A stretch of 62,170 bases of DNA, counting the filler. It is 3 parts of 3 records of this genome, joined end to end, with 100 filler letters (N's around TTAATTAATTAA, not from the genome) between each part and the next. Parts side by side here need not be neighbours in the genome. Positions count along the whole stretch, not along the records: positions 27,621 to 54,434 come from SRR31156797_1860; 2 more parts are not named here. One strand, 5' to 3'. The position numbers were made by a program, and so were the translations under genes. The notes below the pieces were generated by a model. The model was not told the origin of the DNA. It saw only the letters and a list, made by a program, of their open reading frames with translations, and made no database searches. Position 1 is the stretch's first letter; every line of letters starts with the position of its first letter. Of the stretch, positions 27,521-54,534 are shown in pieces.

Positions 27521-27620
27521 NNNNNNNNNNNNNNNNNNNNNNNNNNNNNNNNNNNNNNNNNNNNTTAATTAATTAANNNNNNNNNNNNNNNNNNNNNNNN
27601 NNNNNNNNNNNNNNNNNNNN
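27521..27620. other. Artificial contig linker
   Basis: N44-TTAATTAATTAA-N44 (stop codons in all six frames). Confidence 0.98.
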
Positions 27621-30206: not shown

Positions 30207-30374
30207 TTCAGATGGACAAGCATATTTGAACAAATGCAATACCAAAAATTAAACCAATAAAATAAAGGTGATTAGGAGCGTATCACAAAACAGGGGGTAA
30301 TAATCTTTTTGGGAAACATGATAAGGCCTATGACATTGCTTGCTTTACTCTTAACATTTAAGGAGATCACTCAG

Positions 30375-32219
30375 ATGAAAAAATTGGGGAGTACAGGATT
30401 GTCTCTATCACTAATGGTGGCATTAACGTTCTTGTCCGGTTGTGTTGACGACCATACTAACAAAAAAAAATCAACGGATTACAACCAAAAAAAAGTAGTT
30501 ACCCTTGAACAAGGGTGGAATGATGAGCAACGATCGTCATTCTATACATTATCCCAGGGCTCGCAACTCATCCCCTACTCCTGGTTTTTGGCTTTGGAGC
30601 AAGCAGGCAGCACTACCTTATTTCGAGATACAAGTAATATCAAACGACTGGGGTACATCCCGCAGGACACAACATCTGGACATAATCCTGATGGCCTGCC
30701 CATTGGTTTTGTCAAAGATGACAATATGGAAGACTTTCTTTCTGTAGCGCTATCTTCCTCACGTTTGCAAGCTGATGCACAGAACACCGACAGGCCCTAT
30801 AAAGAGTGGTTAGGATTCACCTGTGCTGCCTGCCATACTTCAGAGATAGAGTACAATAACCACACCTTGCTAATAGACGGCGGCCCTCCTTTGTCGGATT
30901 TTCAAACGTTGATTACTGAGATGTCGCAAGCAGTAAAGGCGACGGTTGAAGATGATGAAAAATTAACCCGTTTCTCAAAAAAAGTCCTTGCCGAAGGTGG
31001 GTACAATGAAACAGAGAAACAACGTATCAAGTTAGAAGTAAATAATTACAGAAACTGGCTGGATAGCTATATCGCAATGAATTACAGCGACCTGGCAACC
31101 CCCTATGGTTACGGACGTCTGGACGCCTTTGGCTCAATCCTTAACATGGTGACAGGCAGTTTCATTGGGATAAAGAAAAATGCCAAGCCGTCAAACGCAC
31201 CGGTAAGTTATCCCTTCTTGTGGAACACTTCACAGCTCAGCTGGGTGCAGTGGAACGGTTCGGCAAACAACCATATCGGCAGAAATGTAGGTGAAGTATC
31301 CGGTGTTTTTGCCCACACCATTGTAAATACAACCAATGATGCCGATCGTTTTTATTCTTCAGCTAAAATCGATAATCTGGATCGGCTGGAACAGTTAATG
31401 AGTCAGCTGGACTCTCCTCAATGGGAATCACCAAATTCTCCCTTACCAGTCATTGATCAAGCCAAGGCTGCACAAGGCAAGGCTCTCTTTTCCCAAAACT
31501 GCCAGCAGTGCCACAACGTCCGCGACGAAAACGGACAATTTCCGATGACAGCTCCGAATCCTGTAGGCAAACAATTTATCAAAATAAACATGATCGCCCT
31601 TGATAAGATTGGCACAGATCCTCTGATGGCGATGAATTTTGTTAACCCTGCCTACGATGCAGACCCCGGAGCCATGCGGCCTTTTCTTCCCAAAGCACTA
31701 CAGAGCAAGGAAAGAGTTCCCAGAGGTGCGATGCTTACGTACCTTGTAAGAAACGTTATCGCGAAACAAGTCGCAGAAAAAAATCCGCCTAATCCACAAG
31801 AATGGCTGTTAGAGCTGTCAGGTGGTCACATACCTTCGGAAAAAGGAGGCCCTGCACCACCAAATCTTATCGCATATAAGGCACGACCATTAAACGGCAT
31901 CTGGGCTACGGCTCCTTATCTACACAACGGCTCGGTTGCGAGTCTCTATGAGATGCTGCTGCCTGAAGCCGAACGCCAGAAATCATTTTATGTTGGCAGT
32001 ACCAAGTTCGATACAGAAAGGGTGGGATTTGCTTCACACCAGGACGATACCAGCTACCTATATAGGACTGTTGATAATCAAGGTAAACCAATTCCTGGCA
32101 ATAGCAACTTGGGACACTCCGGTAAATTACACACCGAAACAAAAGGGGCGGATGGTCAATGGAGAACATACACCGACGCAGAACGCTACCAGCTGATTGA
32201 ATATTTAAAAACGCTCTGA
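30375..32219 (+). CDS. RoxA-like dihaem cytochrome c (peroxidase/oxygenase superfamily) lipoprotein
   Basis: AAGGAG RBS before ATG 30375; lipobox FLSGC; CAACH and CQQCH haem motifs; YKARPLNGIWATAPYLHNGSV; LIEYLKTL. Confidence 0.85.
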   Translation: MKKLGSTGLSLSLMVALTFLSGCVDDHTNKKKSTDYNQKKVVTLEQGWNDEQRSSFYTLSQGSQLIPYSWFLALEQAGSTTLFRDTSNIKRLGYIPQDTTSGHNPDGLPIGFVKDDNMEDFLSVALSSSRLQADAQNTDRPYKEWLGFTCAACHTSEIEYNNHTLLIDGGPPLSDFQTLITEMSQAVKATVEDDEKLTRFSKKVLAEGGYNETEKQRIKLEVNNYRNWLDSYIAMNYSDLATPYGYGRLDAFGSILNMVTGSFIGIKKNAKPSNAPVSYPFLWNTSQLSWVQWNGSANNHIGRNVGEVSGVFAHTIVNTTNDADRFYSSAKIDNLDRLEQLMSQLDSPQWESPNSPLPVIDQAKAAQGKALFSQNCQQCHNVRDENGQFPMTAPNPVGKQFIKINMIALDKIGTDPLMAMNFVNPAYDADPGAMRPFLPKALQSKERVPRGAMLTYLVRNVIAKQVAEKNPPNPQEWLLELSGGHIPSEKGGPAPPNLIAYKARPLNGIWATAPYLHNGSVASLYEMLLPEAERQKSFYVGSTKFDTERVGFASHQDDTSYLYRTVDNQGKPIPGNSNLGHSGKLHTETKGADGQWRTYTDAERYQLIEYLKTL

Positions 32220-36870: not shown

Positions 36871-38163
36871 ATGAACTTTATCGAAGAATTGACATGGCGC
36901 GGCATGATCCACGACATGAAGCCCGGAACCGAAGAACAACTCCAAAAAGAGATGACATCAGCCTATATTGGAATTGATCCTACAGCTGATTCGCTCCATA
37001 TTGGTCACCTGGTAAGCGTGATGATGCTCAAGCATTTCCAAATTGCCGGTCACAAACCATTAGCGCTTGTCGGCGGTGCAACCGGGATGATCGGTGATCC
37101 GTCTGGAAAATCGTTAGAGCGCAACCTGCTCGACGAGAAAACCCTCCGTCACAACCAGGAATGCTTAAAGAAACAGCTCGCTAAATTTCTTGATTTTGAA
37201 TCAGACGCACCCAATGCCGCTGAGCTGGTAAATAATTACGACTGGATGAAAGACTTCAGCTTTTTGGAGTTTATCCGCGATATCGGCAAGCATATTACCG
37301 TAAACTATATGATGGCCAAGGACAGCGTGAAATCACGTTTGGGCGAAGATGCCAAGATGGGTATGTCCTTTACTGAATTTTCCTACCAGTTGGTTCAGGG
37401 AACCGATTTTTTGCATCTGTACAAAGAAAAGAACTGCAAATTACAGATGGGCGGGTCCGACCAGTGGGGAAACATCACCACCGGCACAGAGCTTATCCGC
37501 CGTAAAGAAAGCGGCGACGCCTTTGCCCTTACATGCCCGCTGATAACTAAAGCTGATGGCGGTAAATTTGGAAAGACAGAAAGCGGTAATATCTGGCTTG
37601 ATCCTAAACTGACCACACCCTACAAATTTTACCAGTTTTGGCTCAATGTGTCAGATACCGATGCAGAAAAGTACATTAAAATATTCACCCTGCTCAGTAA
37701 AGAAGAAGTGAGTGAGCTAGTAAAAGAGCAGGAGGCTGCGCCACATCTTCGACCATTGCAGAAACGGTTGGCAAGAGAAGTTACCTGCATGGTTCATGAC
37801 GAAGAAGAGTACGAGAAAGCAGTGGAAGCCTCACAGATCCTTTTTGGAAAAGCAACGGCTGAAAGCCTGGCAAAGCTGGATAAAGAAACGTTTCTTGCAG
37901 TATTTGAAGGAGTGCCTACTTTTGAAATTAAACGTGCTAAACTCGCGGCCGGCGTGCAGATCATTGAATTACTCGCTGCTGAAACCGCCATTTTCCCGAG
38001 TAAAGGCGAAGCACGCCGTACGATAAAAGGGAATGGTCTCAGCCTAAACAAAGCAAAGGTGACTGATCAGGAATACTCGGTTACCACATCGGACCTGATC
38101 AGTGAAACATACGTACTGGTGCAGAAAGGCAAGAAAAATTATTATATTATCGAAGCGGTGTAA
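36871..38163 (+). CDS. tyrS: Tyrosyl-tRNA synthetase (Bacteroidota-type)
   Basis: [27 protein letters not shown]-terminal S4-like domain. Confidence 0.97.
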
Positions 38164-41145: not shown

Positions 41146-43179
41146 CTATAGTAATTTAAACTTTTTCAGCTTAGCGTATATCGTGTTCCGGCCGATACCC
41201 ATTGCCTTGGCTATCTGAGTGATATTGCCTTCATATTGCTCAAGGGCCTGCGTGAGCACTTGTTTTTGAATTTCATCAAAGTTGAGCGATGAGAACCGTT
41301 GTGGCTGTTCTTTGTCCAGGAGGCATGGTTGCCATGTTGCCTGTTGTATCTTCTCCGGCAATGATTCAAAGCTTAATGTATCTCCCTCCATAAGGATGAG
41401 GGATGATTCAATAACATGCCGTAGTTCACGGATATTGCCAGGCCAGGGGTAGGTAGCAAGTGCCTCGCGATACTCTGAATCCACCCCGTCAATCTGTCGA
41501 TCCAGTTTTTGGGTGAACTCTTTGATGAAATGGTCTGCCAGGCGCTGAACATCACCTCCTCTTTCACAGAGAGGCGGTAAGGTGAGAAGAACCACATGAA
41601 GACGATAATACAAATCCTGACGAAACTTTCCTTCCTCGACCATCGCTTCCATATCCCGATTCGTGGCGGCAATCACCCGTACATCAACGGGGATGGTCTG
41701 TTTTCCACCAACCCTGACAATCTGCTTCTCATCCAGAACCCTTAGTAGGTTCACCTGAATGGCAAGAGGCATTTCTCCGATCTCATCCAGAAAAAGGGTT
41801 CCCCCTGCAGCCTGTTCAAACTTGCCAGGTTGTCCACCTCGCCGGGCGCCGGTAAATGCACCTTCGACATAACCAAACAGTTCGCTTTGAATCAGGTCCG
41901 CCGCAATGGCACCGCAATTTACCGCCACAAAGGGTTTTTTCGCCCGAGGGCTTGATTTATGCAAACCGCGCGCCATAACTTCCTTGCCGGTACCACTGGG
42001 ACCGAGAACAAGAACTGTTGTGTCGGTAGCGGCAACCCGGCTTGCCATTTTCAGCGTTCGTTGAAAAGCACTACTGTCCCCAATCATATCCACAAAACCA
42101 TAGTTCTCATTGTGCCGAAGGCGTGGTTTATTGGAAACAGGAGGTGGAGGGTATATACAGAGTGTAAGGCCATGCAAGTGGTTGAAAGTATTAACCAAAG
42201 GCGCAGCAAAGGTATTCCAGGTCGGATTGTGAAGACAACGCAGCTCAACCATTGTCTCCGGGTCAGACCACTTGTCTTCCAATTGCTGGTCAAAAAATGG
42301 TGAGAGGTCAAACCATTGAGAGGCATCCCTGCCGCAAAGTATTTGCAACGAGCTGCCCAATAACTTGGCAGCGAGTTTGTTGCCATAACAAATCTTTCCA
42401 AACCGGTCCAATGTAAGCAGGCCAATGGCGTTGTTGTTCAGCATCCTGCCGACTATTCCCATACACTGCTGCTGAAAAAACAGTGCTTCAATGGCTCTGG
42501 CGTAATATACAGCCAACGCCAGATTTCGACTGTGGTCGGTGTGGAGGGGGCCGGAGATATCGACACAGCCTTTCAGGGATCCATCAACACCAAAAATTGG
42601 AGCAGCTGAACAAATCCAATTTTGGCTACTCTCACAAAAATGCTCTTGACCAATCACCCGCAGTGGCAGGCCGCTGGCAAGAGCTGTGCCGATAGCGTTC
42701 GTGCCCACGCTCTTTTCCGTCCAGTTTGCACCTGGCCCAAAGTGAATGGAGTGAGCCATACGAAGAGCTTTATATGACCCAACCGTACCCGTCAGGTACC
42801 CGTGCCGGTCACAAATCGTGAATAACAATTCCTTTTCGTTAAGAAACGCAGAGAGTTCACCTGTCGTATTTTTTATTAAATTACCCAGAAATCGATGTTC
42901 GGCATCTTTGTTTTGTTCCTCATTAAAATTTTTACATCTCTTCAGGCTCGGATCTACGCCCATTTGAAGGCAACGCTCCCACGAATCGTGAACGCTTGTT
43001 TTAATATAGTCTTGATTAGGTTTTTTATTATCGACAAATTGCCGCCATACCTCCTTGTCCAGTTCGCTTTCGAATTCCAGAGGTAATATGCCGGAGGAAA
43101 ACTGAGGCGTTATAACGACTTCACTCTTGCGAGGCTTCGCAATTGTGTATTTGTCTTTTTTTCTAATGAGTTCGTGCAT
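41146..43179 (-). CDS. acoR: Sigma54-dependent activator AcoR (GAF-PAS-AAA+-HTH)
   Basis: [43 protein letters not shown], Fis-type HTH; divergent from the aco operon. Confidence 0.9.
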
Positions 43180-43350: not shown

Positions 43351-43367
43351 TGTTCTATTACCGAACA
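43351..43367. promoter_or_regulatory. Candidate AcoR upstream activator site 1
   Basis: TGTTC-tattacc-GAACA. Confidence 0.7.
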
Positions 43368-43440: not shown

Positions 43441-43457
43441 TGTTCCATTTTCGAACA
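43441..43457. promoter_or_regulatory. Candidate AcoR upstream activator site 2
   Basis: TGTTC-cattttc-GAACA. Confidence 0.7.
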
Positions 43458-43633: not shown

Positions 43634-43650
43634 TTGGATTGCATTTTGCA
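43634..43650 (+). promoter_or_regulatory. Sigma54 promoter of the aco operon
   Basis: TTGGATTGCATTTTGCA = GG-N10-GC. Confidence 0.7.
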
Positions 43651-43757: not shown

Positions 43758-45089
43758 GTGGCAACAGACATACTTATGCCCAAATGGGGCCTGACCATGA
43801 AGGAAGGAAAACTTTCCAAATGGTTAAAAGATGAAGGTGATAGCGTCAAAGCGGGAGAGGCTATCTTTGAAGTGGAAACCGATAAAATCACCAATACGGT
43901 GGAGGCAGCCGAGGATGGGGTGTTGTTTCAGATCGTTGTGCCCGCCGGTGAAACCGTAGCAGTAAAAACGGTGGTAGGGGTGCTGGCAGCTGCAGGTGAG
44001 ACCCCTGAGAAAAAAGAGGCAAGCGGGGCGACAGCGGCTACGGAACAATCTGCATCAAAAGAAGTGGCGAGTAAAAAAGCCAAAACAGGAGAATTCGTTC
44101 TGGCCACACCAATTGCTCGCCGTCTTGCCAAAGAGCAAGGCATTGATTTAGCAGACGTGACAGGTACCGGTCCTAACGGCAGGGTAACTGAAAAAGATGT
44201 TCTCGGCTACACTCCAGAGCCTGATGAATATGACTCCTTCAATGCTGCACCTCAGGCAATAGACCTGGCAAGAAAATCAGGTATTGATCTATCGGATATT
44301 ACCGGAAGCGGTGAAGGCGGCAAGATTCTCAAGGTAGACATCCTGCGAGCTATGCAACCAGCCGTTGACCAGAAAAAAGCGAAGGAAGCTGACATGCCTG
44401 AAATCATCCCATTTACTGGCATGCGCAAAATTATCGCTGACAACATGATGGCCAGTTTGCACAATATGGCACAGCTTACGGCCTTTGTTGAATGTGATAT
44501 TACCGAAATGACCGCCTTTCGTGACCGTGTGCGGACCAAGAATGCAAAACGAGAAGACATACCACGTGTTTCTTATAATGATATCATCGCGTTGGCTGTC
44601 AGCAGAACCCTCATGAAATTCCCTTACATGAATTCCTGGCTCACCGAAGAAGGTATTGTCAGGCATAAGCAGGTAAATCTTGGCATTGCTGTTGCTTTGG
44701 ATAACGGTCTGGTTGTGCCACATGTCAAGGAAGCCGAGAAAAAATCATTAACTGAATTGGCTGTGGCTATCCGCGATGTTGCAGGGAAGGCAAGAGAAGG
44801 TGGCCTTTCCATGGATGAACTTCAGGGGGGAACCTTCACTATAAGTAATGTGAGTATGTTGGGTGTGGATGGTTTTACACCAATTATTAATCCACCAGAA
44901 ATTGCCATTCTCGGTGTCGGCCGTGCTGTACAGCGTCCGGCTGTGGCCGCCGATGGTCAGATCGTCAGCCGCACGATGATGACCCTCAGCCTTACCTTTG
45001 ACCACCGGGTAGCCGATGGTGCTCCTGCCATGAACTTCTTGCGTGGTTTGGCGGATTGCCTGGAAGACCCTGCCATGATACTTGCCTAA
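43758..45089 (+). CDS. acoC: Acetoin dehydrogenase E2, dihydrolipoamide acetyltransferase
   Basis: AGGAGG RBS and GTG start; lipoyl ETDKIT; two peripheral-subunit-binding domains; DHRVADG. Confidence 0.92.
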   Translation: MATDILMPKWGLTMKEGKLSKWLKDEGDSVKAGEAIFEVETDKITNTVEAAEDGVLFQIVVPAGETVAVKTVVGVLAAAGETPEKKEASGATAATEQSASKEVASKKAKTGEFVLATPIARRLAKEQGIDLADVTGTGPNGRVTEKDVLGYTPEPDEYDSFNAAPQAIDLARKSGIDLSDITGSGEGGKILKVDILRAMQPAVDQKKAKEADMPEIIPFTGMRKIIADNMMASLHNMAQLTAFVECDITEMTAFRDRVRTKNAKREDIPRVSYNDIIALAVSRTLMKFPYMNSWLTEEGIVRHKQVNLGIAVALDNGLVVPHVKEAEKKSLTELAVAIRDVAGKAREGGLSMDELQGGTFTISNVSMLGVDGFTPIINPPEIAILGVGRAVQRPAVAADGQIVSRTMMTLSLTFDHRVADGAPAMNFLRGLADCLEDPAMILA

Positions 45090-45105
45090 CACGAGAGCGT
45101 AACGG

Positions 45106-45471
45106 ATGGAAAAGAAAAGGTTTGTTGTTGAGCTGGGCAGTGGTGCGGATCTCCACGGTATGGATGCCACCAAGGCCGCCTGCCGGGCGGTATGCGATGC
45201 CATCAGGCATAGCTGCTTGTGCGGGGTGGTGGAAATTTTAGGTCGCAGCAGCTTTGAAGGAGTAATTATTGAGGTATTGGTGGCCTCTCCTTTTCCCGAA
45301 CAGGTTGACACCGACAAGGTCCTGGCCGAATTGCCCATCGGCAAATGTAGCCTCCATTCGGTGAAAGGAGGCATGTTGGCCGAGGGGCTCTGTGTGGATA
45401 CTTTCGGTAAAGGCTGTTCTTCCATTCTCGTTGCCAACGCGGCAATCACTGTTTTTGTGGAAATCGACTAA
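45106..45471 (+). CDS. Lin0512 family protein
   Basis: ELGSGADLHGMDATKAACRAVCDAIRHS, LPIG, GG, ANAAITV. Confidence 0.8.
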   Translation: MEKKRFVVELGSGADLHGMDATKAACRAVCDAIRHSCLCGVVEILGRSSFEGVIIEVLVASPFPEQVDTDKVLAELPIGKCSLHSVKGGMLAEGLCVDTFGKGCSSILVANAAITVFVEID

Positions 45472-45612
45472 ACATTTGTATCGAGCCGGTGGCCCCTAGT
45501 GCCATGACACCTCAAGTATAACTTATTATCAGGAACATGCATGATGCCCTGTCGCCGATACAACTTCAATATTGACCTCTATTCAAAGTCATGAGCAACC
45601 AAGGAGGAAGTA

Positions 45613-46572
45613 ATGACAAAAAGTAAGGAAAAAATGATCCAAATGTATACGACCATGTACCGGATTCGTCAGTTTGAAAGCAAACTGCAAGATTTCTTTG
45701 CAGCCAGCAAAATTCCCGGTTTTGTGCACCTTTATCTGGGTGAAGAGGCTGTGGCTGCCGGAACCTGCGCTGCTTTACGTGACGATGACTACATCACCAG
45801 CACACACCGTGGACATGGACACCTGATCGCCAAGGGTGGAGACCTCAAATTAATGATGGCCGAGATCTTTGGTAAAAGTACCGGATACTGCAAAGGTAAG
45901 GGTGGTTCCATGCACATAGCCGACGTGAATCTTGGTATCCTTGGTGCCAACGGTATCGTTGGTGGTGGTGGCCCTATTGCTGCCGGGGCCGGCATGGCCA
46001 TTCAATACCGGGGTGAAGATCGAGTCGCGGTTTGTTTCTTTGGCGATGGTGCTTCCAATCAGGGTACGACGCAAGAGGCACTTAACCTGGCTAGCGCTTG
46101 GGAGCTTCCGGTTGTCTTTGTTAATGAAAATAATGGATACGGCATATCTTGTCCTATCAGTAAATCCATGGCAATCACAGATATTGCCGACCGTGCCGCA
46201 GCCTATGACATGCCCGGCGTTATTGTAGACGGAAATGATGTCGTTGCCGTAAACGAGGCAATCTCTGCAGCCGTTGAGCGGGCGCGTAAGGGAGAGGGAC
46301 CTTCCCTGGTTGAATGTAAAACCTACCGTTGGCGTGGCCATTTTGAAGGCGATGCCTGTACCTACCGGGAGAAGGACGAACTCGACGAGTGGGTCAAGAA
46401 AGATCCGATCCCGCGTTTTGCCAAAAAACTGCTGGATGAGGAGATCCTCACCAAAAAGGAACTCGACAAACTGCATGCCGACGTAAATAAAGAATTGCAG
46501 GAGGCTATTACCTTTGCAGAAGAGAGCCCTCTGCCGGAACCTGCAGATATGTTTGAAGATATTTATGCCTGA
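45613..46572 (+). CDS. acoA: Acetoin:TPP-dependent dehydrogenase E1 alpha
   Basis: PGFVHLYLGEEA, STHRGHGH, GKGGSMH, FFGDGASNQG, YRWRGHFEGD. Confidence 0.93.
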   Translation: MTKSKEKMIQMYTTMYRIRQFESKLQDFFAASKIPGFVHLYLGEEAVAAGTCAALRDDDYITSTHRGHGHLIAKGGDLKLMMAEIFGKSTGYCKGKGGSMHIADVNLGILGANGIVGGGGPIAAGAGMAIQYRGEDRVAVCFFGDGASNQGTTQEALNLASAWELPVVFVNENNGYGISCPISKSMAITDIADRAAAYDMPGVIVDGNDVVAVNEAISAAVERARKGEGPSLVECKTYRWRGHFEGDACTYREKDELDEWVKKDPIPRFAKKLLDEEILTKKELDKLHADVNKELQEAITFAEESPLPEPADMFEDIYA

Positions 46573-46637
46573 GAGGATAACCGGGGATAACATACCAATC
46601 TGACGTTTACGTGATACTTAATTTTCTGGAGGAATAC

Positions 46638-47612
46638 ATGGCACAAAAAACATATATGCAGGCGCTCAATGACGCCTTACGCGAAGAAATGGAAAGCGAT
46701 TCCAATGTACTCGTCTTCGGTGAAGATGTCGGTCAATTTGGAGGCTGTTTTGGTGTAACCAAGGGGCTTTACGAGCAATTTGGCGAAAAGCGAGTACGCG
46801 ATACTCCAATTACCGAAAGCGCTATTATCGGCGCGGCTACGGGTGCTGCGGCTGCCGGTTTACGACCAGTCTGCGAACTGATGTTTGTAGACTTTATCGG
46901 TGTCTGCATGGATCAGCTTTTTAATCAGGCAGCCAAGATGCGATACATGTTTGGTGGCAAGACCACCATCCCTATGGTCGTCAGGGCACCCCAGGGAGCC
47001 GGAATCGGCGCCGCCGCCCAGCATTCACAGTCTCTGGAGGCCTGGTTCATGCACATACCAGGACTGAAGGTAGCTATGCCTGCGACCCCAGCTGATGCTT
47101 ACGGCCTATTACTTACAGCCATTCGAGATGACAATCCGGTTATGTTCCTTGAACACAAGCTGCTCTACGGCGTTGAAGGCGAGGTTCCTGAAAATGCCGG
47201 TCCTATTCCCTTTGGTCAGGCTAATGTCTGTAGAGAAGGTACTGACGTCACTATCGTTGCCTTTTCCAAAATGGTCTACAGTGCTCTTGAAGCTGCTGAG
47301 GCGTTGGCTGCCAAGGGAATCAGCGCAGAAGTCATTGATCCGCGCACAGTGGCACCGCTGGATATGGATACCATTCTCAATTCCGTAAAAAAGACCCACA
47401 ATCTGGTCGTGGCTCACGAAGCGGTTAAAGTAGCCGGAGCAGGGGCAGAAATCGCAGCACAGGTGGCTGAAGAAGCTATTGATTACCTGGATGCACCTAT
47501 CATGCGTGTAGGAGCACCTTTTACCCCAGTACCATTTTCACCTCCATTGGAGGAAGCATTCATTCCGGGTGCTGAAAACATTGTTGCTGCAGTTGAAAAA
47601 ATGCGTTCCTGA
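46638..47612 (+). CDS. acoB: Acetoin dehydrogenase E1 beta
   Basis: GGAGG RBS; GEDVG, DTPITES, QHSQSLEAW, EHKLLY. Confidence 0.93.
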   Translation: MAQKTYMQALNDALREEMESDSNVLVFGEDVGQFGGCFGVTKGLYEQFGEKRVRDTPITESAIIGAATGAAAAGLRPVCELMFVDFIGVCMDQLFNQAAKMRYMFGGKTTIPMVVRAPQGAGIGAAAQHSQSLEAWFMHIPGLKVAMPATPADAYGLLLTAIRDDNPVMFLEHKLLYGVEGEVPENAGPIPFGQANVCREGTDVTIVAFSKMVYSALEAAEALAAKGISAEVIDPRTVAPLDMDTILNSVKKTHNLVVAHEAVKVAGAGAEIAAQVAEEAIDYLDAPIMRVGAPFTPVPFSPPLEEAFIPGAENIVAAVEKMRS

Positions 47613-47639
47613 TTTCAACAACGAAAGAGAAGAATCATT

Positions 47640-48623
47640 ATGACAACAGTCGGTATCATCGCCAACCCTATTTCAGGCAAAGACATTCGCCGCCTTGTAG
47701 CCCACGGCAGTGTTTTTGATAATCAGGAAAAGGTGCGTATTGTAAGGCGCCTTTTGGTTGGTCTTGCCTGGGCTGGAGTGAAACGGGTAATTTTCATGCC
47801 CGATTACTACTCCATTGTTCAGCGAGCGCACAAGGGTGCCCACACAGCTATTGATATAGAATCAGCTCCAATGTGTGTTGACAATACCCAGGAAGACTCA
47901 ACGAAAGCAGCCCGGCTGATGGTCCAAGCCGGGGTCAGTTGTATCTTTGTTTTGGGAGGTGACGGCACAAGCCGGGCTGTGACCAAAGGGAACGTAACGA
48001 TACCGATTTTGCCTATTTCCACAGGCACCAATAATGTTTTCCCTTTTATGATGGAGGCGACCATAGCTGGTCTGGCCGGAGGTATTATTGCCACCGGACA
48101 GATCAGTTTGGAGGAAGGCTGTTTTCGATCTCCCAGTATTGAGATACTTGATGGGGAAGGCTCGATTCTTGATATCGCTTTGGTGGACGCAGCGGTTCAT
48201 ACGGATACCTTTATCGGGTCCAAGGCCATTTGGAGCCTAGATCAGGTGTCTCAAATTTTTCTGACCCGTTGTCGACCAGATAGTATTGGTCTTTCGGCTA
48301 TAGGAGGCCAACTTCACACCATCAGCCCACAAGAGCAGCAAGGCTTGCATCTTATATTGGGCGAAGGAGGCAAGATGGTGACTGCCCCTATTGCTCCCGG
48401 ATTGATGGAACCTGTAGCTATTGCAGGGGAGGCTTCGCTGCAGGTGGGGGACACCGTTTTGATCAATGAATCTCCCTGTATCATTGCCCTAGATGGTGAA
48501 CGTGAGGTTGAGGTTAGGCGTGGAAAACATGTCTCCATCAGTTTTTCCAGCAATGGTCCCTTGGTGATAGATGTTCCCAAAGTGATGGCACTAGCCCAGC
48601 AAGCCAAGCTTTTTGTTAAATAA
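47640..48623 (+). CDS. acoX: AcoX (ATP-NAD/AcoX kinase family)
   Basis: GIIANPISGKDIRRLVA, LGGDGT, STGTNNVFP, ALDGERE. Confidence 0.9.
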   Translation: MTTVGIIANPISGKDIRRLVAHGSVFDNQEKVRIVRRLLVGLAWAGVKRVIFMPDYYSIVQRAHKGAHTAIDIESAPMCVDNTQEDSTKAARLMVQAGVSCIFVLGGDGTSRAVTKGNVTIPILPISTGTNNVFPFMMEATIAGLAGGIIATGQISLEEGCFRSPSIEILDGEGSILDIALVDAAVHTDTFIGSKAIWSLDQVSQIFLTRCRPDSIGLSAIGGQLHTISPQEQQGLHLILGEGGKMVTAPIAPGLMEPVAIAGEASLQVGDTVLINESPCIIALDGEREVEVRRGKHVSISFSSNGPLVIDVPKVMALAQQAKLFVK

Positions 48624-48701
48624 GAACAGGCTGGCAATATCACTACTCATCCGGTGTTTGTTTATCCCTCGCCCTGAATTAAAAAATAAGGAGAAGCATC
48701 A

Positions 48702-49016
48702 ATGACTGACATAATAAAAGCTGCATTTGTCTTTCTCGCACCGGAAGCAAATCCTGGCAAACACCGGCAGTGGATAAAAACCCCTGTAGTACACGTGGTG
48801 ACTGTTGGGGTCACAAATTATCCAGAAGCCGTGGCAACGTGCAAGGAACTGGTCCAAGATGACGGTGTGAAGGCAATTGAACTGTGTGGTGGTTTCGGTA
48901 ATCGCGGCACAGCACTTGTTGCCGAAGCCGTAGGTAATGATGTCGCTGTGGGAGCGGTACGTTTCGACGTGCACCCAGGGCTTGGTAACGTCAGCGGCGA
49001 TACAATTTTTGGTTAA
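48702..49016 (+). CDS. DUF6506-like small protein
   Basis: KAAFVFLAP, IELCGGFG, VRFDVHP; co-oriented within the operon. Confidence 0.7.
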   Translation: MTDIIKAAFVFLAPEANPGKHRQWIKTPVVHVVTVGVTNYPEAVATCKELVQDDGVKAIELCGGFGNRGTALVAEAVGNDVAVGAVRFDVHPGLGNVSGDTIFG

Positions 49017-49129
49017 TCCATCCCAACCGATATTCACAACGTGTTGGTCAACTTGAGAGTGAACTGATTACGGTTTTTTCTTCGATTTGGAAGCGAAATG
49101 ATCACTTTTAACATATGGAGGGGTTCAGT

Positions 49130-50188
49130 ATGAAAGCAGCGAAGTGGTACGGACAAAAGGACATTCGCGTTGAAGATGTAGCTAACCCACCCGCACCAAA
49201 TCCAGGTGAAGTGCAAGTAAAAGTTGCCTGGTGTGGAATTTGCGGGTCTGATCTGCATGAATATCTTGCAGGCCCTATCTTTATCCCAGTCGAGCCGCAT
49301 CCGTTGACGGGAGTAAAAGCGCCGCTGGTTCTTGGTCACGAATTCTCCGGAGAGGTGGTTGCAGTTGGAGAAGGTGTGGAGACTGTCGGTGTTGGCGACT
49401 ATGTTGCACCGGATGCCTGTCAGCACTGTGGTGTTTGTGTAAACTGCCGTGAAGGGCGCTATAATGTGTGCGAAAAGTTAGCCTTTACAGGACTTATGGC
49501 TGACGGAGCTTTTGCAGAATACGTCAATGTTCCCGCGGAACTCTGCTACGTATTACCAAAAGGGTTTGATTTAGAAGCAGCATCCCTTATCGAACCTCTT
49601 GCCACAGGTTTTAAAGCTGTTCGTCTGGCAGGGTCCTTGTTGGGCCAAACTGCAGTAGTTTTAGGAGCCGGCACTATCGGTTTGGGTACGATCATGTGCG
49701 CAAAGGCGGCTGGGGCATCAACAGTAGTGGGAGTCGAGACGGCGACAGCGCGTAAAAAACTGGCCACGGAATGCGGCGCGGATGTCGTACTCGACCCCAA
49801 TAATTGTGACATTGTTGCCGAGATCAAGAAGTTGACCAATGGATCCGGGGCTGAAGTTTCTTTTGAATGCATCGGCCATAAAAATACTGCCCCCCTGGCT
49901 GTTGATGTAATCCGTAATCATGGTAAAGCTGTTATCGTCGGCATTTTCGAGGAGCCGAGCTCTTTTAATTTCTTTAGCTTAAGCGGCACGGATAAAGTGG
50001 TTATAGGTACTTTGGCCTACACAATTGATGATTTTCAGGGTGTAGCTAATCTGCTCGCCAGTGGCCAATTGCAAGCAGAACCTTTGATTACAGGAAGGAT
50101 AGGGCTACAAGATATTGTAGAGAAAGGATTTGATGAATTAGTCAATAATAAGGCGACAAATATTAAAATTATCGTCAGTCCGACCTGA
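49130..50188 (+). CDS. Zn-dependent (R,R)-2,3-butanediol dehydrogenase
   Basis: CGICGSDLHEY, GHEFSG, CxxCxxCx7C, GAGTIG; located in the aco operon. Confidence 0.88.
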   Translation: MKAAKWYGQKDIRVEDVANPPAPNPGEVQVKVAWCGICGSDLHEYLAGPIFIPVEPHPLTGVKAPLVLGHEFSGEVVAVGEGVETVGVGDYVAPDACQHCGVCVNCREGRYNVCEKLAFTGLMADGAFAEYVNVPAELCYVLPKGFDLEAASLIEPLATGFKAVRLAGSLLGQTAVVLGAGTIGLGTIMCAKAAGASTVVGVETATARKKLATECGADVVLDPNNCDIVAEIKKLTNGSGAEVSFECIGHKNTAPLAVDVIRNHGKAVIVGIFEEPSSFNFFSLSGTDKVVIGTLAYTIDDFQGVANLLASGQLQAEPLITGRIGLQDIVEKGFDELVNNKATNIKIIVSPT

Positions 50189-50212
50189 TTATCACGCTCA
50201 TCTCATACGTAG

Positions 50213-50248
50213 AAAAAAGGCTGCCTCAAAAGGGCAGCCCTTTTTTTT
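50213..50248 (+). terminator. Bidirectional terminator at the end of the aco operon
   Basis: AAAAAAGGCTGCC-tcaaaa-GGGCAGCCC-TTTTTTTT. Confidence 0.8.
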
Positions 50249-50294
50249 AAATCCTATAGCCTATGTTCATAGCCTGAAGACAAACAGAAAAAAG

Positions 50295-50327
50295 AAAGGG
50301 GCTATCCCTGGTTTGAGACAGCCCCTT
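50295..50327 (-). terminator. Terminator-like hairpin downstream of the CMD gene
   Basis: AAGGGGCT...AGCCCCTT preceded by an A-run. Confidence 0.6.
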
Positions 50328-50407
50328 GCGCTTTTTTCACAAAGATAAATTTTTAGTTTTAGCCTGACGATTTATGCTCTGTTGTTTTTTTGTTTATGGC
50401 AAACATC

Positions 50408-50734
50408 TCATCCAAACAAGTCTTCCAATGCATCATACACATAGGACATGTACATCAGTTTTGGTGAACCACCCATAGCCACTGCCATAAACGCAGCTTG
50501 AATGATTTCATCTTGGGACGCCCCCATAGATGCGGCAGCCTCAACATGTAAAGCAATACACATTTCACATTGTGACATCACTCCACAGGCAACCATAATC
50601 AGTTCCAGCTCCTTGTGTGGAATTGCGTCGATGGCCGCAAGCTGCTTCGTGAATTCAAGGTACTTGCCATACTCCGTAGGAGAGTATTTGGTTAAATAAG
50701 AAAGGGCCTGGCCGGCTTTTTCAGACGAGTTCAT
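50408..50734 (-). CDS. Carboxymuconolactone decarboxylase / AhpD-like CxxC protein
   Basis: GAGGAG RBS; ELIMVACGVMSQCEMCIALH (E...CxxC...H); GASQDEI. Confidence 0.88.
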   Translation of the reverse strand: MNSSEKAGQALSYLTKYSPTEYGKYLEFTKQLAAIDAIPHKELELIMVACGVMSQCEMCIALHVEAAASMGASQDEIIQAAFMAVAMGGSPKLMYMSYVYDALEDLFG

Positions 50735-50830
50735 ACGTGCTCCTCATTAGATTGTTTTCGAATAAAGGGTTGCTTGGTCGAACCACTGGTGTAGCCGACC
50801 GATTCGATGGTCATTCTCCACCTAGCTCTT

Positions 50831-50846
50831 TGCAGTTTACATGCCT
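50831..50846 (-). promoter_or_regulatory. Sigma54 promoter of the CMD gene
   Basis: Minus strand AGGCATGTAAACTGCA = GG-N10-GC. Confidence 0.6.
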
Positions 50847-51151
50847 AATATTATAATCAAAGTTGCAAAGCGACGTTGTGGAATAGAATTTTTTTTTATA
50901 TTGAATGTAATAACCATTATACCATGCAATATAGTATACAATTGCCTGACAATCTGCTGACGAACAAGCAGGACATCTCTAGTGTTTCATCTTCTGGCCA
51001 TCTTTGTTGTGAGCCAATGGAAAAATTCTCTAAGGAGCATAGCCGACAACTGTAGTTCTCCCCAATCAACGACATTCAAGCTGGCCAAATCCACATGTCG
51101 TCTTGTTGTGATTATTCTGGACATGTGCAACTATTCCAAGCTTACTGTGAC

Positions 51152-51201
51152 TGCTCCAAAAATGAACACCTGGCAGACATAATCTGTTCATTTTTTGAAC
51201 A
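51152..51201. promoter_or_regulatory. Pair of AcoR-type UAS upstream of the CMD gene
   Basis: TGCTC-caaaaat-GAACA (51152-51168) and TGTTC-atttttt-GAACA (51185-51201). Confidence 0.65.
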
Positions 51202-51480
51202 GGTCTGCTTATGTGGATAATTCTGGCCGCAGGAAGAGTTCTGCCGTCATCGGGGGGGGGGCAGCTTGGCGGAAAACCAAAGCTATCGATTACCTGCGAA
51301 GGCAACAGTTACTGGTGCAGAGGAATCAACGGAGGCATAGTGGGAAGTGCTGTGCGAAAAAAAGATAAACCCTGTCGGCAGCAAAACGACAGAATCTACC
51401 AAGAATTGGTCACTTGAATCCTCCGCAGAGGAGGGATCAATCAGATGGCATGTTTTCTGAGTTATCTTTAAAACGGAAAG

Positions 51481-52377
51481 TTAGCGCTCATCTCCTGCAT
51501 GAAATGTAGAAGCGAGTGCAGGCAAAAAAAGAGACTGTTTCTTGTCACGAAGAACATGGATGTGAACTCCCGGGCGTTCATACCGTTCAATGTCACGATG
51601 GACCATGTAGGAAAACTGCATGGTATCATCCTGTTTGAACGGCATGTGATAAATCACAATATCGCGGGGACGAAATATTTCATTGATTATTTCTTGTCCG
51701 CTGGGGTTGTGATAAAAAATAGGGTTTACAAAAACGGCATCTAGGACCACATCCGCCAAAGCATTTTCAAAATACGCCGAAACATAGTCGGCGTCCCCGG
51801 TAAACAGAAGGTTTTTCCCGGCCAACGTCAACAGGAAGCAATCGTTGCGAATAGCTGCATATTGCGGCCCCATATGCCGTGCACCAATTACGGTAACTAT
51901 CAAATCGTCCGTGAGCGCGACCCGTTTCGTCTCTCCTGGCTCCAATCCTAATGGCCAGTAGGGGATCGCAAGTTCCCGTGCTTGGTTGAGCAGGAGAGAA
52001 AGGCTCGGCGATCCCTGGCTCTCAGGTGGGAGAAAAAGCCCTTTTACCAATCTGAACTGTAGATATTTCGATACATAGTGGGGAGCAAAATGGTCTGGAT
52101 GCTCATGGGTGAACAACAGATAATCGAGGTTTGCGAAAATACCCGCCCCACGGCGCATGAGCTGTATGTCGCTTTCGGCGACCCGACTGAATGGATGTCC
52201 ATCTTCATGGTGGATTCCATCCACAAGGAGTCCGACACCGTTATGTTCGATCAAGACCCCTGCGTTAGCGATAAGAGTTATCTTGACGCAATCATTTCCG
52301 CTTTTCTGGCCCCCAAGAAAAGGCGATCCCCTGCCATGAAGGCGTCTTGCCCCCCTAGGGCCGTGCTTGATATTCAT
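51481..52377 (-). CDS. MBL-fold metallo-hydrolase
   Basis: THEHPDHF (HxHxDH), HMG, FTGDA, YHMP. Confidence 0.85.
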   Translation of the reverse strand: MNIKHGPRGARRLHGRGSPFLGGQKSGNDCVKITLIANAGVLIEHNGVGLLVDGIHHEDGHPFSRVAESDIQLMRRGAGIFANLDYLLFTHEHPDHFAPHYVSKYLQFRLVKGLFLPPESQGSPSLSLLLNQARELAIPYWPLGLEPGETKRVALTDDLIVTVIGARHMGPQYAAIRNDCFLLTLAGKNLLFTGDADYVSAYFENALADVVLDAVFVNPIFYHNPSGQEIINEIFRPRDIVIYHMPFKQDDTMQFSYMVHRDIERYERPGVHIHVLRDKKQSLFLPALASTFHAGDER

Positions 52378-52393
52378 CTATAGTTCAGAAAAG

Positions 52394-53254
52394 TTATGCT
52401 GTCATGGCTGCAAAACTCTCAGCTGCATGATACGAACTGCGTACCAATGGTCCTGCAACGACTTGTTTGAATCCGAGCTCATGCCCGATAGCCGCCAATT
52501 GGTCGAATGTATCTGGATGAACGTATTCCTTCATCGGGTGGTGTTGGGGAGATGGCCGCAGATACTGCCCCAAGGTCAGAATCTGGCATTCAGACTGAAG
52601 TAAATCTTTCATAACCTCAACCACTTCTTCCAAAGTCTCACCCAGGCCGAGCATCAAGCCTGATTTGGTCGCGATGTGTTGATCAGGACACGCCAAAGAC
52701 ACCTTCTTGAGCAACCGTAAGGACTGTTTGTAAGCGGCCCCTGGCCTTACCGACGAATAAATACGGGGAACGGTTTCCAAATTATGGTTGATCACATCCG
52801 GTACAGCCGAGATGACTTGGCTGAGAGGAGTGTCCTGCCCTTTGAAATCGGGGACAAGGACTTCCACTGTGGCATTCGGATTTTCTCGTTTGACAGCCTT
52901 TATTGTCGCAGCAAACTGGCTGGCTCCACCATCCGGCAGGTCATCACGGGTCACGGACGTAACAACGACATGTTTGAGTCCCAGTTGACTGGCAGTGAGA
53001 GCGACCATGTAAGGTTCTTTGGGATCAGGGCTAGAAGGTCGTCCATGTGTTACCGCACAAAAAGCGCAATTTCGTGTGCAAACATCACCTAAAATCATAA
53101 ACGTGCATGTTTTGTTGGCAAAGCACTCACCTATATTCGGACACTGGGCGCTTTCACATACAGAATGAAGTTGGCCTTTATCCAGCAGTGCCTGGATGCG
53201 GTCCATGTCATGTGTATTGGGGGCTGGAAGCACCAGCCAACTAGGTCGTTTCAA
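52394..53254 (-). CDS. lipA: Lipoyl synthase (start probably TTG 53254, overlapping the lipB stop)
   Basis: AAGGAGG RBS; CESAQCPNIGEC, CTRNCAFC, NHNLETV, VRSSY. Confidence 0.95.
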   Translation of the reverse strand: MKRPSWLVLPAPNTHDMDRIQALLDKGQLHSVCESAQCPNIGECFANKTCTFMILGDVCTRNCAFCAVTHGRPSSPDPKEPYMVALTASQLGLKHVVVTSVTRDDLPDGGASQFAATIKAVKRENPNATVEVLVPDFKGQDTPLSQVISAVPDVINHNLETVPRIYSSVRPGAAYKQSLRLLKKVSLACPDQHIATKSGLMLGLGETLEEVVEVMKDLLQSECQILTLGQYLRPSPQHHPMKEYVHPDTFDQLAAIGHELGFKQVVAGPLVRSSYHAAESFAAMTA

Positions 53255-53957
53255 GATAGTCCTCCTTGATGAACTGTTCCAGGTTGCCGAAACGCATGGA
53301 AAGCTGAAAAATGTCTGAAAATTGCCTACGCATCTCACTTCGCACGGCATTAATATCAATGGAGTGCCCTAGGACTTCAGCCATTGAGGTCACACCGTTG
53401 GAAGCAATACCGCAAGGAACGATGAATGAAAAATGTTGGAGATCGGGACACACGTTGAGTGCAATGCCATGCATTGTGATCCATTTACGGACAGCAATCC
53501 CCATAGCTCCGATTTTCAGATTCTCAACCCACACACCAGGGAATTTTGATTTTCGCCCTGCCACTATACCAAATGTGCGTAAAGTCCTAATCATGACTTC
53601 TTCCATTTTACGTGCATAAGCATGGAGATCGCGTTGTTCCCCCTCCAGAGAAAAAATCGGGTAACAAACAAGCTGCCCGGGGCCATGATAGGTAATATCT
53701 CCACCCCTGGGTGTCTCATGCACAGTGATACCGTATTTTTCCAAAACGGCTTTGTCTGCAAGCAGATTATGGTAGCCGCCACTACGGCCAATAGTGATGC
53801 AGGGAGAATGTTCCAGCATGATTACCACATCGGGAATTCCCCCCTGCTGCCTCTTGTTACGAAGAACTTCCTGCAGACGACACATCTCTGGATATTCGCA
53901 TCTGGAAAAATTCAGCCAAAGGCTGCTTTTATTGATTTTCTTATCTCTAATTATCAT
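53241..53957 (-). CDS. lipB: Octanoyltransferase
   Basis: LEHSP, RGGDITYHGPGQLV, KIGAMG, HGIALN, IVPCG. Confidence 0.95.
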   Translation of the reverse strand: MIIRDKKINKSSLWLNFSRCEYPEMCRLQEVLRNKRQQGGIPDVVIMLEHSPCITIGRSGGYHNLLADKAVLEKYGITVHETPRGGDITYHGPGQLVCYPIFSLEGEQRDLHAYARKMEEVMIRTLRTFGIVAGRKSKFPGVWVENLKIGAMGIAVRKWITMHGIALNVCPDLQHFSFIVPCGIASNGVTSMAEVLGHSIDINAVRSEMRRQFSDIFQLSMRFGNLEQFIKEDYLETT

Positions 53958-53999: not shown

Positions 54000-54015
54000 T
54001 GCAAAATGTACGCCA
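54000..54015 (-). promoter_or_regulatory. Sigma54 promoter of lipB-lipA-MBL
   Basis: Minus strand TGGCGTACATTTTGCA, close to consensus TGGCAC-N5-TTGC. Confidence 0.75.
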
Positions 54016-54334
54016 TAACGAGAACTCACTCGCCAGATCTCTGGAAAAATGGTACACGAAAAAATTTATCGAATACATCTCTCAACATCAAACTCAGCAG
54101 ACAGGTTATCAGACAGAGGTACCTTCTGGTTGAAGAGAATCTAAAGAGATATGGGAAAAACAAATCGAACGGCAATTGAGTTTTCCCTCAATTGACACAA
54201 CAATGTTGCCGCACATAGTGACAGATGGTTCGTTGGGAAAATAGATTTCTGACGGGACTTTTCTCGGGACATATAGAGGAAAGCCTTTCAAAATTAAAAA
54301 AGGATGAAACATATTCAGAAAAGCTGTTCAGCAC

Positions 54335-54434: not shown

Positions 54435-54534
54435 NNNNNNNNNNNNNNNNNNNNNNNNNNNNNNNNNNNNNNNNNNNNTTAATTAATTAANNNNNNNNNN
54501 NNNNNNNNNNNNNNNNNNNNNNNNNNNNNNNNNN
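54435..54534. other. Artificial contig linker
   Basis: N44-TTAATTAATTAA-N44. Confidence 0.98.

Follow-up and report, generated by a model that had tools for sequence, protein, structure and literature searches.

The DNA studied here, a window of 62,170 nucleotides (the whole stretch analysed), consists of three contigs joined by N-linkers at 27521–27620 and 54435–54534. Its middle contig (27621–54434) carries an acetoin dehydrogenase (aco) locus that encodes a small AhpD-like dithiol protein of the CMD family and no dihydrolipoamide dehydrogenase (E3; acoL or lpd). Acetoin clusters in many sulfate reducers are built in this way, without the usual E3 and with a small two-cysteine protein in its stead; they form a genuine type of acetoin dehydrogenase system that has been conserved. 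We call clusters with the AhpD-like (CMD) gene CMD-type and those with lpd lpd-type. Both sets come from a survey of the best 80 of 164 confirmed acoX loci on genome contigs, which gave 38 CMD-type and 21 lpd-type loci; 13 further CMD-type loci from a sample of Desulfovibrionales genomes bring the CMD-type set to 51.

Composition and control of the aco locus

Gene content was defined by Pfam and NCBIfam scans of 16 proteins encoded between 38326 and 53957. On the plus strand, the operon opens with acoC (E2; 43758..45089), whose product combines one lipoyl domain with K43, a lysine invariant in 34 CMD-type AcoC, with two peripheral-subunit-binding (E3-binding-type) domains and an acyltransferase core. 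There follow a Lin0512-family gene (45106..45471; PF09585, TIGR02058), acoA (E1 alpha; 45613..46572; PF00676), acoB (E1 beta; 46638..47612; PF02779 and PF02780), the NAD-kinase-like acoX (47640..48623; PF01513, named by context), a DUF6506 gene (48702..49016; PF20116) and a Zn-dependent alcohol dehydrogenase gene, bdh (49115..50188; ADH_N and ADH_zinc_N). The last, found in only 14 of the 51 CMD-type loci, probably encodes a 2,3-butanediol dehydrogenase, a substrate read from context. Divergent from the operon lies an acoR-like sigma-54 activator gene (41146..43179, minus strand; Sigma54_activat and HTH_8), which is present in 45 of the 51 loci, some of them cut by contig ends. The Lin0512-family and DUF6506 genes, each in 49 of 51, are near-constant in both cluster types.

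The AhpD-like gene (50408..50734; 108 amino acids; PF02627 and TIGR00778 over cut-off) is encoded on the minus strand, as are a metallo-beta-lactamase-fold gene (51481..52377; weak Pfam matches below or near cut-off), the lipoyl synthase gene lipA (52394..53254; TIGR00510 over cut-off) and the octanoyltransferase gene lipB (53241..53957; TIGR00214 over cut-off). Translation of lipA likely starts at a TTG at 53254, as read from the sequence; the open reading frame (ORF) finder extends it to 53359. No pyridine nucleotide-disulphide oxidoreductase (E3/lpd) was found among the 16 scanned proteins. The locus thus holds the thiamine diphosphate-dependent E1 alpha and beta genes, an E2 with lipoyl lysine, binding domain and core, acoX, and an AcoR/sigma-54 context; acoL is absent from it and from all 51 CMD-type loci. 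Every gene that the first-pass annotation, made from the letters of the window, had named is in place, and the two binding domains of AcoC and the missing lpd are confirmed as well. Acetoin as the substrate of the complex we infer from gene context; the PDB matches included no solved acetoin E1. Among acetoin clusters, acoX has been described as typical (PMC3543383).

The window holds three exact copies of an upstream activator box, TGTTC-N7-GAACA, where 0.08 would be expected; they lie at 43351, 43441 and 51185. Two of them (43351..43367 and 43441..43457) precede acoC, together with a sigma-54-type −24/−12 site (43634..43650, plus strand; GG-N10-GC) that has three mismatches to the sigma-54 consensus. 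The CMD gene has two boxes of its own within 51152..51201, one exact (51185) and one with one mismatch (51152), and its own sigma-54-type site (50831..50847, minus strand; GG-N10-GC). A weaker site with four mismatches lies upstream of lipB (54000..54016, minus strand). Terminator-like hairpins close the aco operon after bdh (50219..50239, plus strand) and follow the CMD gene (50296..50327, minus strand). Both the terminated operon and the separately promoted gene with an E..CxxC..H motif and the same upstream box had been noted at first pass, and both hold up. Relatives keep the box and the sigma-54 site upstream of acoC; upstream of the CMD gene, 36 of 38 relatives have a box with at most one mismatch within 600 bp (shuffled mean 0.3) and 35 of 38 a sigma-54 site within 250 bp (shuffled mean 3.5). 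Co-regulation of the aco operon and the CMD gene is therefore a conserved design, with AcoR the presumed ligand of the box.

The best-described counterpart is the acoABCSL/acoX/acoR/lipB cluster of Pelobacter carbinolicus (PMC3543383), which likewise groups E1 alpha and beta, a lipoylated E2, acoX, AcoR, butanediol dehydrogenase and lipoyl synthesis genes. It differs in having acoL, whereas the window cluster has the AhpD-like gene under the same control; neither AhpD nor CMD occurs in the main text of that paper. We found no description of an AhpD-like gene in aco clusters, or in the place of E3, in a literature search that covered titles and abstract openings, with most subscription journals outside its scope. 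E3-less aco operons are also known from Cupriavidus and Pseudomonas.

The 108-residue protein matches PF02627 at 54.4 bits and TIGR00778 at 35.1 bits. Its motif comprises E44, C56-x-x-C59 and H63, with Met at position 58; all 78 orthologues share E44, Q55, C56, C59 and H63. The structural model (predicted local distance difference test, pLDDT, 90) has six helices and an all-helical AhpD-like fold. Its nearest structures are Lpg0406 (5dik; TM-score 0.85), TM1620 and RclX, small proteins that share the six-helix fold and the E-x11-CxxC-x3-H motif but are only about 28% identical and are linked to oxidant defence rather than to a lipoyl-dependent catabolic operon. Mycobacterial AhpD is a protein of about 175 residues with a His inside the CxxC, and its structures 1me5 and 1gu9 matched weakly (E 0.06–0.11). 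The spacing of the Glu/His relay around the CxxC, which we take to be that of Mycobacterium tuberculosis AhpD, is matched here. The protein is therefore an AhpD-like member of the CMD family and not mycobacterial AhpD, as its length, Met58 and the lack of a linked ahpC attest. No peroxiredoxin family recurred in at least three of the 51 CMD-type loci, genome-wide peroxiredoxins not having been searched.

A stand-alone paralogue with 47–57% identity to the aco-linked protein occurs in Desulfovibrionales (17 matches; for example L118, 6828–7208, and L119 and L160–L166), mostly in genomes without acoX. These paralogues keep the CxxC and the His; all nine examined lack the catalytic Glu, E44.

Distribution of the AhpD-like gene and of lpd

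Across the best 80 acoX loci, 38 had the CMD gene only, 21 had lpd only, 21 had neither, and none had both. Among the 56 loci with good flanks (at least 4.5 kb upstream and at least 3 kb downstream), the corresponding counts were 33, 16, 7 and 0. No CMD orthologue was found anywhere in the 21 lpd-type genomes, where the best match reached 30–34% identity, and a profile search of five of them gave at most 64 bits. Sampling of 201 Desulfovibrionales genomes repeated the pattern: 32 have acoX, none of these has both genes in the cluster, and the CMD orthologue (at least 62% identity) is present in 18, never more than 4 kb from acoX. Of the other 14 genomes with acoX, 13 have lpd in the cluster, and in the last one the cluster is cut off there. 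In the 23 additional clusters from this order, all 13 with CMD lack lpd, and nine of the ten without CMD have lpd, the tenth being cut off; the four remaining genomes that lack CMD had been classed as lpd-type in the survey of 80 loci. A sample of 401 genomes from the phylum yielded the orthologue five times, four times beside acoX and once at the end of a contig, flanked by lplA and a gene for E2. The anti-correlation of acoL and CMD that the first-pass annotation had proposed as a test thus holds (0 of 80 loci; none of 32 Desulfovibrionales genomes with acoX), but it reflects only two independent switches.

Those switches were placed on a tree of AcoABX from 67 of 81 loci, 14 having been dropped for missing or distant genes, with records from Synergistales and Chloroflexota as the root. 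On it the basal state is the lpd type; the CMD type has a single origin, and a single lineage of Desulfovibrio reverted to lpd. Since kin share the trait, we set aside a Fisher's exact p of 6e-9 for the exclusion. Several orders have retained the CMD-type cluster, and so has a spirochaete: an Oceanispirochaeta record (L054) holds an intact copy that nests among Desulfovibrionaceae on the tree and was probably acquired by horizontal transfer, the host having no DsrC match. The orthologue flanked by lplA and E2 lies in a co-oriented E1 alpha–E1 beta–lplA–CMD–E2 operon (L127, 7993–11899) of a draft without an acoX match, on a contig that ends inside E2; a different dehydrogenase may here follow the same plan.

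Absence of E3 from the locus does not extend to the genome. An lpd-like gene lies outside the aco cluster in 38 of 38 CMD-type genomes, as the first-pass annotation had allowed, and the idea of an E3-less organism is rejected for these relatives: 'E3-less' is true of the locus only. TIGR01350 scored over cut-off in 28 of the 38, and in 11 of the 12 lpd-type genomes, out of 21, that were scanned with it. In the ten CMD-type genomes below cut-off, the best lpd match lies in a gcvH-P1-P2-L operon in eight and on short or cut contigs in two. Among close relatives its context is a pyruvate dehydrogenase (PDH) operon, a glycine-cleavage operon or a stand-alone gene. An AcoR-regulated acoL elsewhere, named at first pass as one half of what would overturn its proposal, was not found: no exact activator box lies upstream of lpd in the ten genomes checked for exact matches. 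From these two results, the host very probably has an E3 that is not under aco control. In a Maridesulfovibrio genome (L099, 5598–8918), an OsmC-like gene directly precedes lpd, with lipA nearby, likely forming a lipoyl-fed peroxidase unit.

The host itself is most likely a Desulfobulbales-type sulfate reducer, on two grounds. The closest acoX relatives (73–88% identity) come from Desulfocapsa, Desulfobulbus, Desulfogranum and Desulfobacter records and an unclassified Proteobacteria draft, and TyrS of the window (36871–38163) is 88% identical to that of one Desulfogranum genome. A chimeric contig, suspected from the tyrS gene, is rejected by the Desulfogranum match. The same TyrS is only 33–36% identical to those of four other relatives, which suggests that tyrS was replaced in part of the family. 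The three joined contigs differ in base composition (G+C about 37%, 46% and 31%), and genes outside 27621–54434 probably belong to other organisms. The contig ends at the linker, 478 bp upstream of lipB, in agreement with the roughly 480 bp first reported. On the same contig as the aco locus is a gene of the di-haem cytochrome c peroxidase family (30309–32219; NF040606 over cut-off). The metallo-beta-lactamase-fold gene accompanies lipA/lipB and occurs in 17 of the 51 CMD-type loci; a role in lipoate handling is possible. In Desulfobulbus rhabdoformis, bdh (L006, 11469–13912) is in two pieces around an unannotated ORF of 418 amino acids, possibly an insertion element.

The second binding domain of AcoC and its predicted partner

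AcoC binding domain 1 (residues 114–149; 44097..44204, plus strand) is kept in every AcoC examined and is presumed to be the E1 site. Binding domain 2 (residues 162–198; 44241..44351, plus strand) carries a signature of the CMD type and is the predicted docking site of the AhpD-like protein. Two binding domains are present in 34 of 35 CMD-type AcoC ORFs, the exception being a split ORF, and in 13 of 13 out of sample; the cassette-type AcoC also have two (18 of 18; out of sample 10 of 10). The first AcoC of lpd-type Desulfovibrio, which nests in the CMD clade, has a single domain in all ten cases, and in nine of nine out of sample (one ORF unparsed). The one-domain form occurs where Desulfovibrio regained the acoC2–lpd cassette and lost the CMD gene, although domain 2 might have gone simply because E3 binding passed to the new AcoC. 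Mean identity of domain 2 is 0.60 and 0.64 within the cluster types and 0.45 between them. All 20 PDB matches to domain 2 are E2 or E2-like chains.

We modelled two CMD copies with AcoC residues 154–203, alongside three controls. The complex scored 0.68 against 0.00 for the best control, runs shared at least 92% of contacts, and partner pLDDT was at least 87. Predicted contacts join CMD residues 65, 68–71 and 105–108 to AcoC residues 164, 166, 191–193, 196–197 and 199–200; C56 and C59 are not among them. The sequence signatures agree with this model: the cluster types differ at just the positions that make contact. CMD-type domain 2 has K192, A/V/I193 and L196 in 47 of 47 sequences each, whereas among 28 lpd-type sequences E/D is found at 193 in 24 and at 196 in 21. 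On the other side of the interface, all 78 CMD orthologues have an acidic residue at 105 and Leu at 106, and K/R occupies 105 in eight of nine stand-alone paralogues. We know of no solved complex of an E2 binding domain with an AhpD-like protein. The model supports binding of CMD to AcoC without demonstrating it. We consider the AhpD-like protein quite probably a docked AcoC partner that exchanges electrons with the lipoyl arm.

Possible routes for the lipoyl electrons

The lpd-type clusters often contain a module of their own. It comprises a ligase, an HdrD-like CCG protein, a carrier resembling GcvH that keeps the lipoyl lysine, and a multihaem cytochrome c whose membrane part is NarI-like. 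Examples of this seemingly undescribed module are at L246 (12703–17158; 11 CxxCH in the cytochrome), L247 (11439–16859), L248 (10537–15351) and L137–L146. It resembles the sHdr-LbpA systems (PMC6067878) in its carrier with the conserved Lys, its HdrD-like CCG protein and its ligase, but is associated with a multihaem cytochrome of the membrane and not with genes for sulfur oxidation, and it is absent from the CMD-type genomes studied. An HdrD-like CCG orthologue (at least 40% identity) was found in 11 of 12 lpd-type genomes and in none of 38 CMD-type genomes; in at least one genome this gene sits in another E1/E2/E3 operon. Given these components, lpd-type clusters appear equipped to pass lipoyl electrons to a membrane chain. 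The loss of both this module and E3 in the CMD type suggests a role for the CMD protein in disposing of electrons. A predicted docking domain that is type-specific and lost when lpd is regained, and the loss of this electron-export module, are what our analysis adds.

A plausible cycle can be assembled from these parts. AcoR and sigma-54 would activate the aco operon, the lipoylation genes and the separately promoted CMD gene; the motifs are conserved. By established chemistry, AcoAB would split acetoin into acetaldehyde and an acetyl group on the lipoyl arm of AcoC, and AcoC would hand the acetyl group to CoA, leaving dihydrolipoyl. The AhpD-like protein, predicted to dock on AcoC domain 2 through its helix 4 and acidic C-terminus, may then reoxidise the arm by thiol–disulfide exchange at its C56–C59 disulfide, as AhpD chemistry would allow. 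Reduced CMD could in turn be reoxidised by an acceptor encoded elsewhere, such as thioredoxin, a DsrC/Hdr-type disulfide, polysulfide or a peroxiredoxin. The chemistry that this needs is already known from two precedents. In M. tuberculosis, dihydrolipoyl-E2 generated by E1 powers AhpD and AhpC without NADH (PMC12995895), and dihydrolipoyl-E2, from E1 or E3, reduces the CxxC disulfide of AhpD (PMC12995895, PMC8945050); AhpD-type reductases of Corynebacterium prefer a Lpd/SucB route (PMC10460364). In the M. tuberculosis route, AhpD is an antioxidant accessory of a complex that retains E3 and whose E2 has a single binding domain. By contrast, the window-type CMD protein excludes lpd from the cluster, has no adjacent ahpC, is a single 108-residue unit, and is tracked by a second E2 domain.

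Clustering of neighbours in the 51 CMD-type loci gave no recurrent acceptor gene; the further neighbours that recurred were an ABC ATPase (9), a family resembling sensor kinases (6) and two families found three times each. A hotdog thioesterase gene occurs in 27 of the 51 (for example L042, 13094–13504) and in Desulfovibrionales usually lies directly behind the CMD gene. The 17 regions around other exact boxes, most of which look like chance matches, held no acceptor candidate; one pair of boxes precedes a short-chain dehydrogenase gene. Of five carrier genomes searched for DsrC, one gave no match, which rules it out as an obligatory acceptor; this genome is a spirochaete draft whose CMD-type cluster is intact and which has several lpd genes. 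The DsrC/Hdr-type acceptor suggested at first pass draws on analogy with the sister HdrD-like module and found no direct support.

We consider it somewhat probable that a docked AhpD-like dithiol subunit reoxidises the AcoC lipoyl arm in the place of E3, and rank this as the best single reading of the locus. The same proposal in the first-pass annotation gains from the exclusion in 80 loci, the conserved co-regulation, the docking model and the matching signatures. Several points weigh against it. Every CMD-type genome has an lpd-like gene elsewhere, and in Acinetobacter baylyi acoL is dispensable, for which the authors credit the housekeeping Lpd (PMC2290942). The tree offers only two independent changes of state (sign test p 0.5), seven well-flanked acoX loci, all from more distant clusters, have neither gene, and two CMD-clade drafts with cut-off loci (L008, L013) contain no CMD orthologue. 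The predicted interface is small (25 contacts), and none of the three controls was domain 1 or an lpd-type domain 2. The score mark, which 51 of 78 solved complexes and 2 of 108 mismatched pairs attained, is rough for a job unlike its calibration, and close cousins of true partners pass the tool's test in 10 of 12 cases. The signature counts come from related sequences compared after the model was seen. To these are added the lack of a recurring acceptor gene and the carrier without a DsrC match.

The main rival, which we regard as unlikely though a serious contender, is that the complex borrows E3: the housekeeping Lpd of PDH or glycine cleavage would make NADH, and docked CMD would tap dihydrolipoyl for peroxide defence or thiol repair, in the manner of actinobacterial AhpD. 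The lpd genes elsewhere and the A. baylyi precedent speak for it, the docking evidence fits it equally well, and the nearest structures (Lpg0406, TM1620 and RclX) and the characterised AhpD-type proteins, antioxidant relays fed by Lpd, SucB or NADH (PMC10460364, PMC8945050), favour the antioxidant part. It leaves unexplained why CMD is absent from all 21 lpd-type genomes and why CMD and domain 2 were lost jointly upon regain of lpd. Nor does it sit well with the lack of a peroxiredoxin recurring beside the CMD gene in the 51 loci, with a CMD promoter that bears the box of a catabolic activator, or with the constancy of CMD: bdh (14 of 51), lipA (14) and the thioesterase (27) vary, whereas CMD is constant in well-flanked loci of the clade except on the branch that regained lpd.

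In a less probable variant, CMD would act as an adapter, accepting the AcoC electrons and delivering them to lipoylated GcvH or to a different E2; a housekeeping Lpd unable to dock on AcoC could then still make NADH. Thiol exchange with lipoyl groups is reversible, the best lpd match in Desulfovibrionaceae of this type is frequently the L protein of glycine cleavage, encoded next to gcvH (8 of the 10 sub-cut-off genomes), and an adapter requires no new acceptor gene, in line with none recurring in 51 loci. Against this, Lpd can act on free lipoyl domains without an adapter, and no single Lpd partner is conserved, because the lpd context varies.

Still more doubtful is a role as lipoylation helper, keeping lipoate or lipoylation enzymes reduced or carrying an Fe-S cluster for LipA. 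CMD adjoins lplA or lipA/lipB in most loci (lplA 34, lipA 14, lipB 11 of 51), and MdrA of Methanosarcina, a CMD-family protein, binds a cluster through its CxxC. Yet its own promoter separates CMD from the lipoylation genes, most CMD-type loci have no lipA, lpd-type loci without CMD do have it, and the predicted partner is a binding domain of AcoC. That the gene merely hitch-hiked, joining the cluster once with no tie to acetoin metabolism, would suit the two changes on the tree and the stand-alone paralogue in genomes without acoX but is scarcely credible given the activator box in 36 of 38 loci, catalytic residues that are invariant where nine of nine paralogues lack E44, and retention across several orders and a spirochaete record.

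Returning to CMD as a stand-in for E3, a fuller version is tentative and in our judgement falls short of probable: a cofactor-free dithiol third component, on a dedicated E2 domain, would carry the whole acetoin electron flux to the thiol/disulfide pool of an anaerobe, perhaps to acceptors of the Hdr/DsrC or thioredoxin type, bypassing NAD+; it would have replaced an ancestral E3 with its carrier/HdrD/cytochrome module and given way again once that module returned in Desulfovibrio. In their textbook form, the dehydrogenase complexes for 2-oxoacids and acetoin finish with E3 and NADH, and the NAD+/NADH couple lies at −0.32 V. Because the lipoyl couple lies above it, at −0.29 V (PMC6067878), such an ending is awkward for anaerobes. 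If the stand-in reading is true, a docked thiol protein would let the complex discharge into a higher-potential sulfur pool, AhpD-like proteins would gain a catabolic role beyond defence, and an E2 binding domain would be seen to recruit a partner that is neither E1 nor E3.

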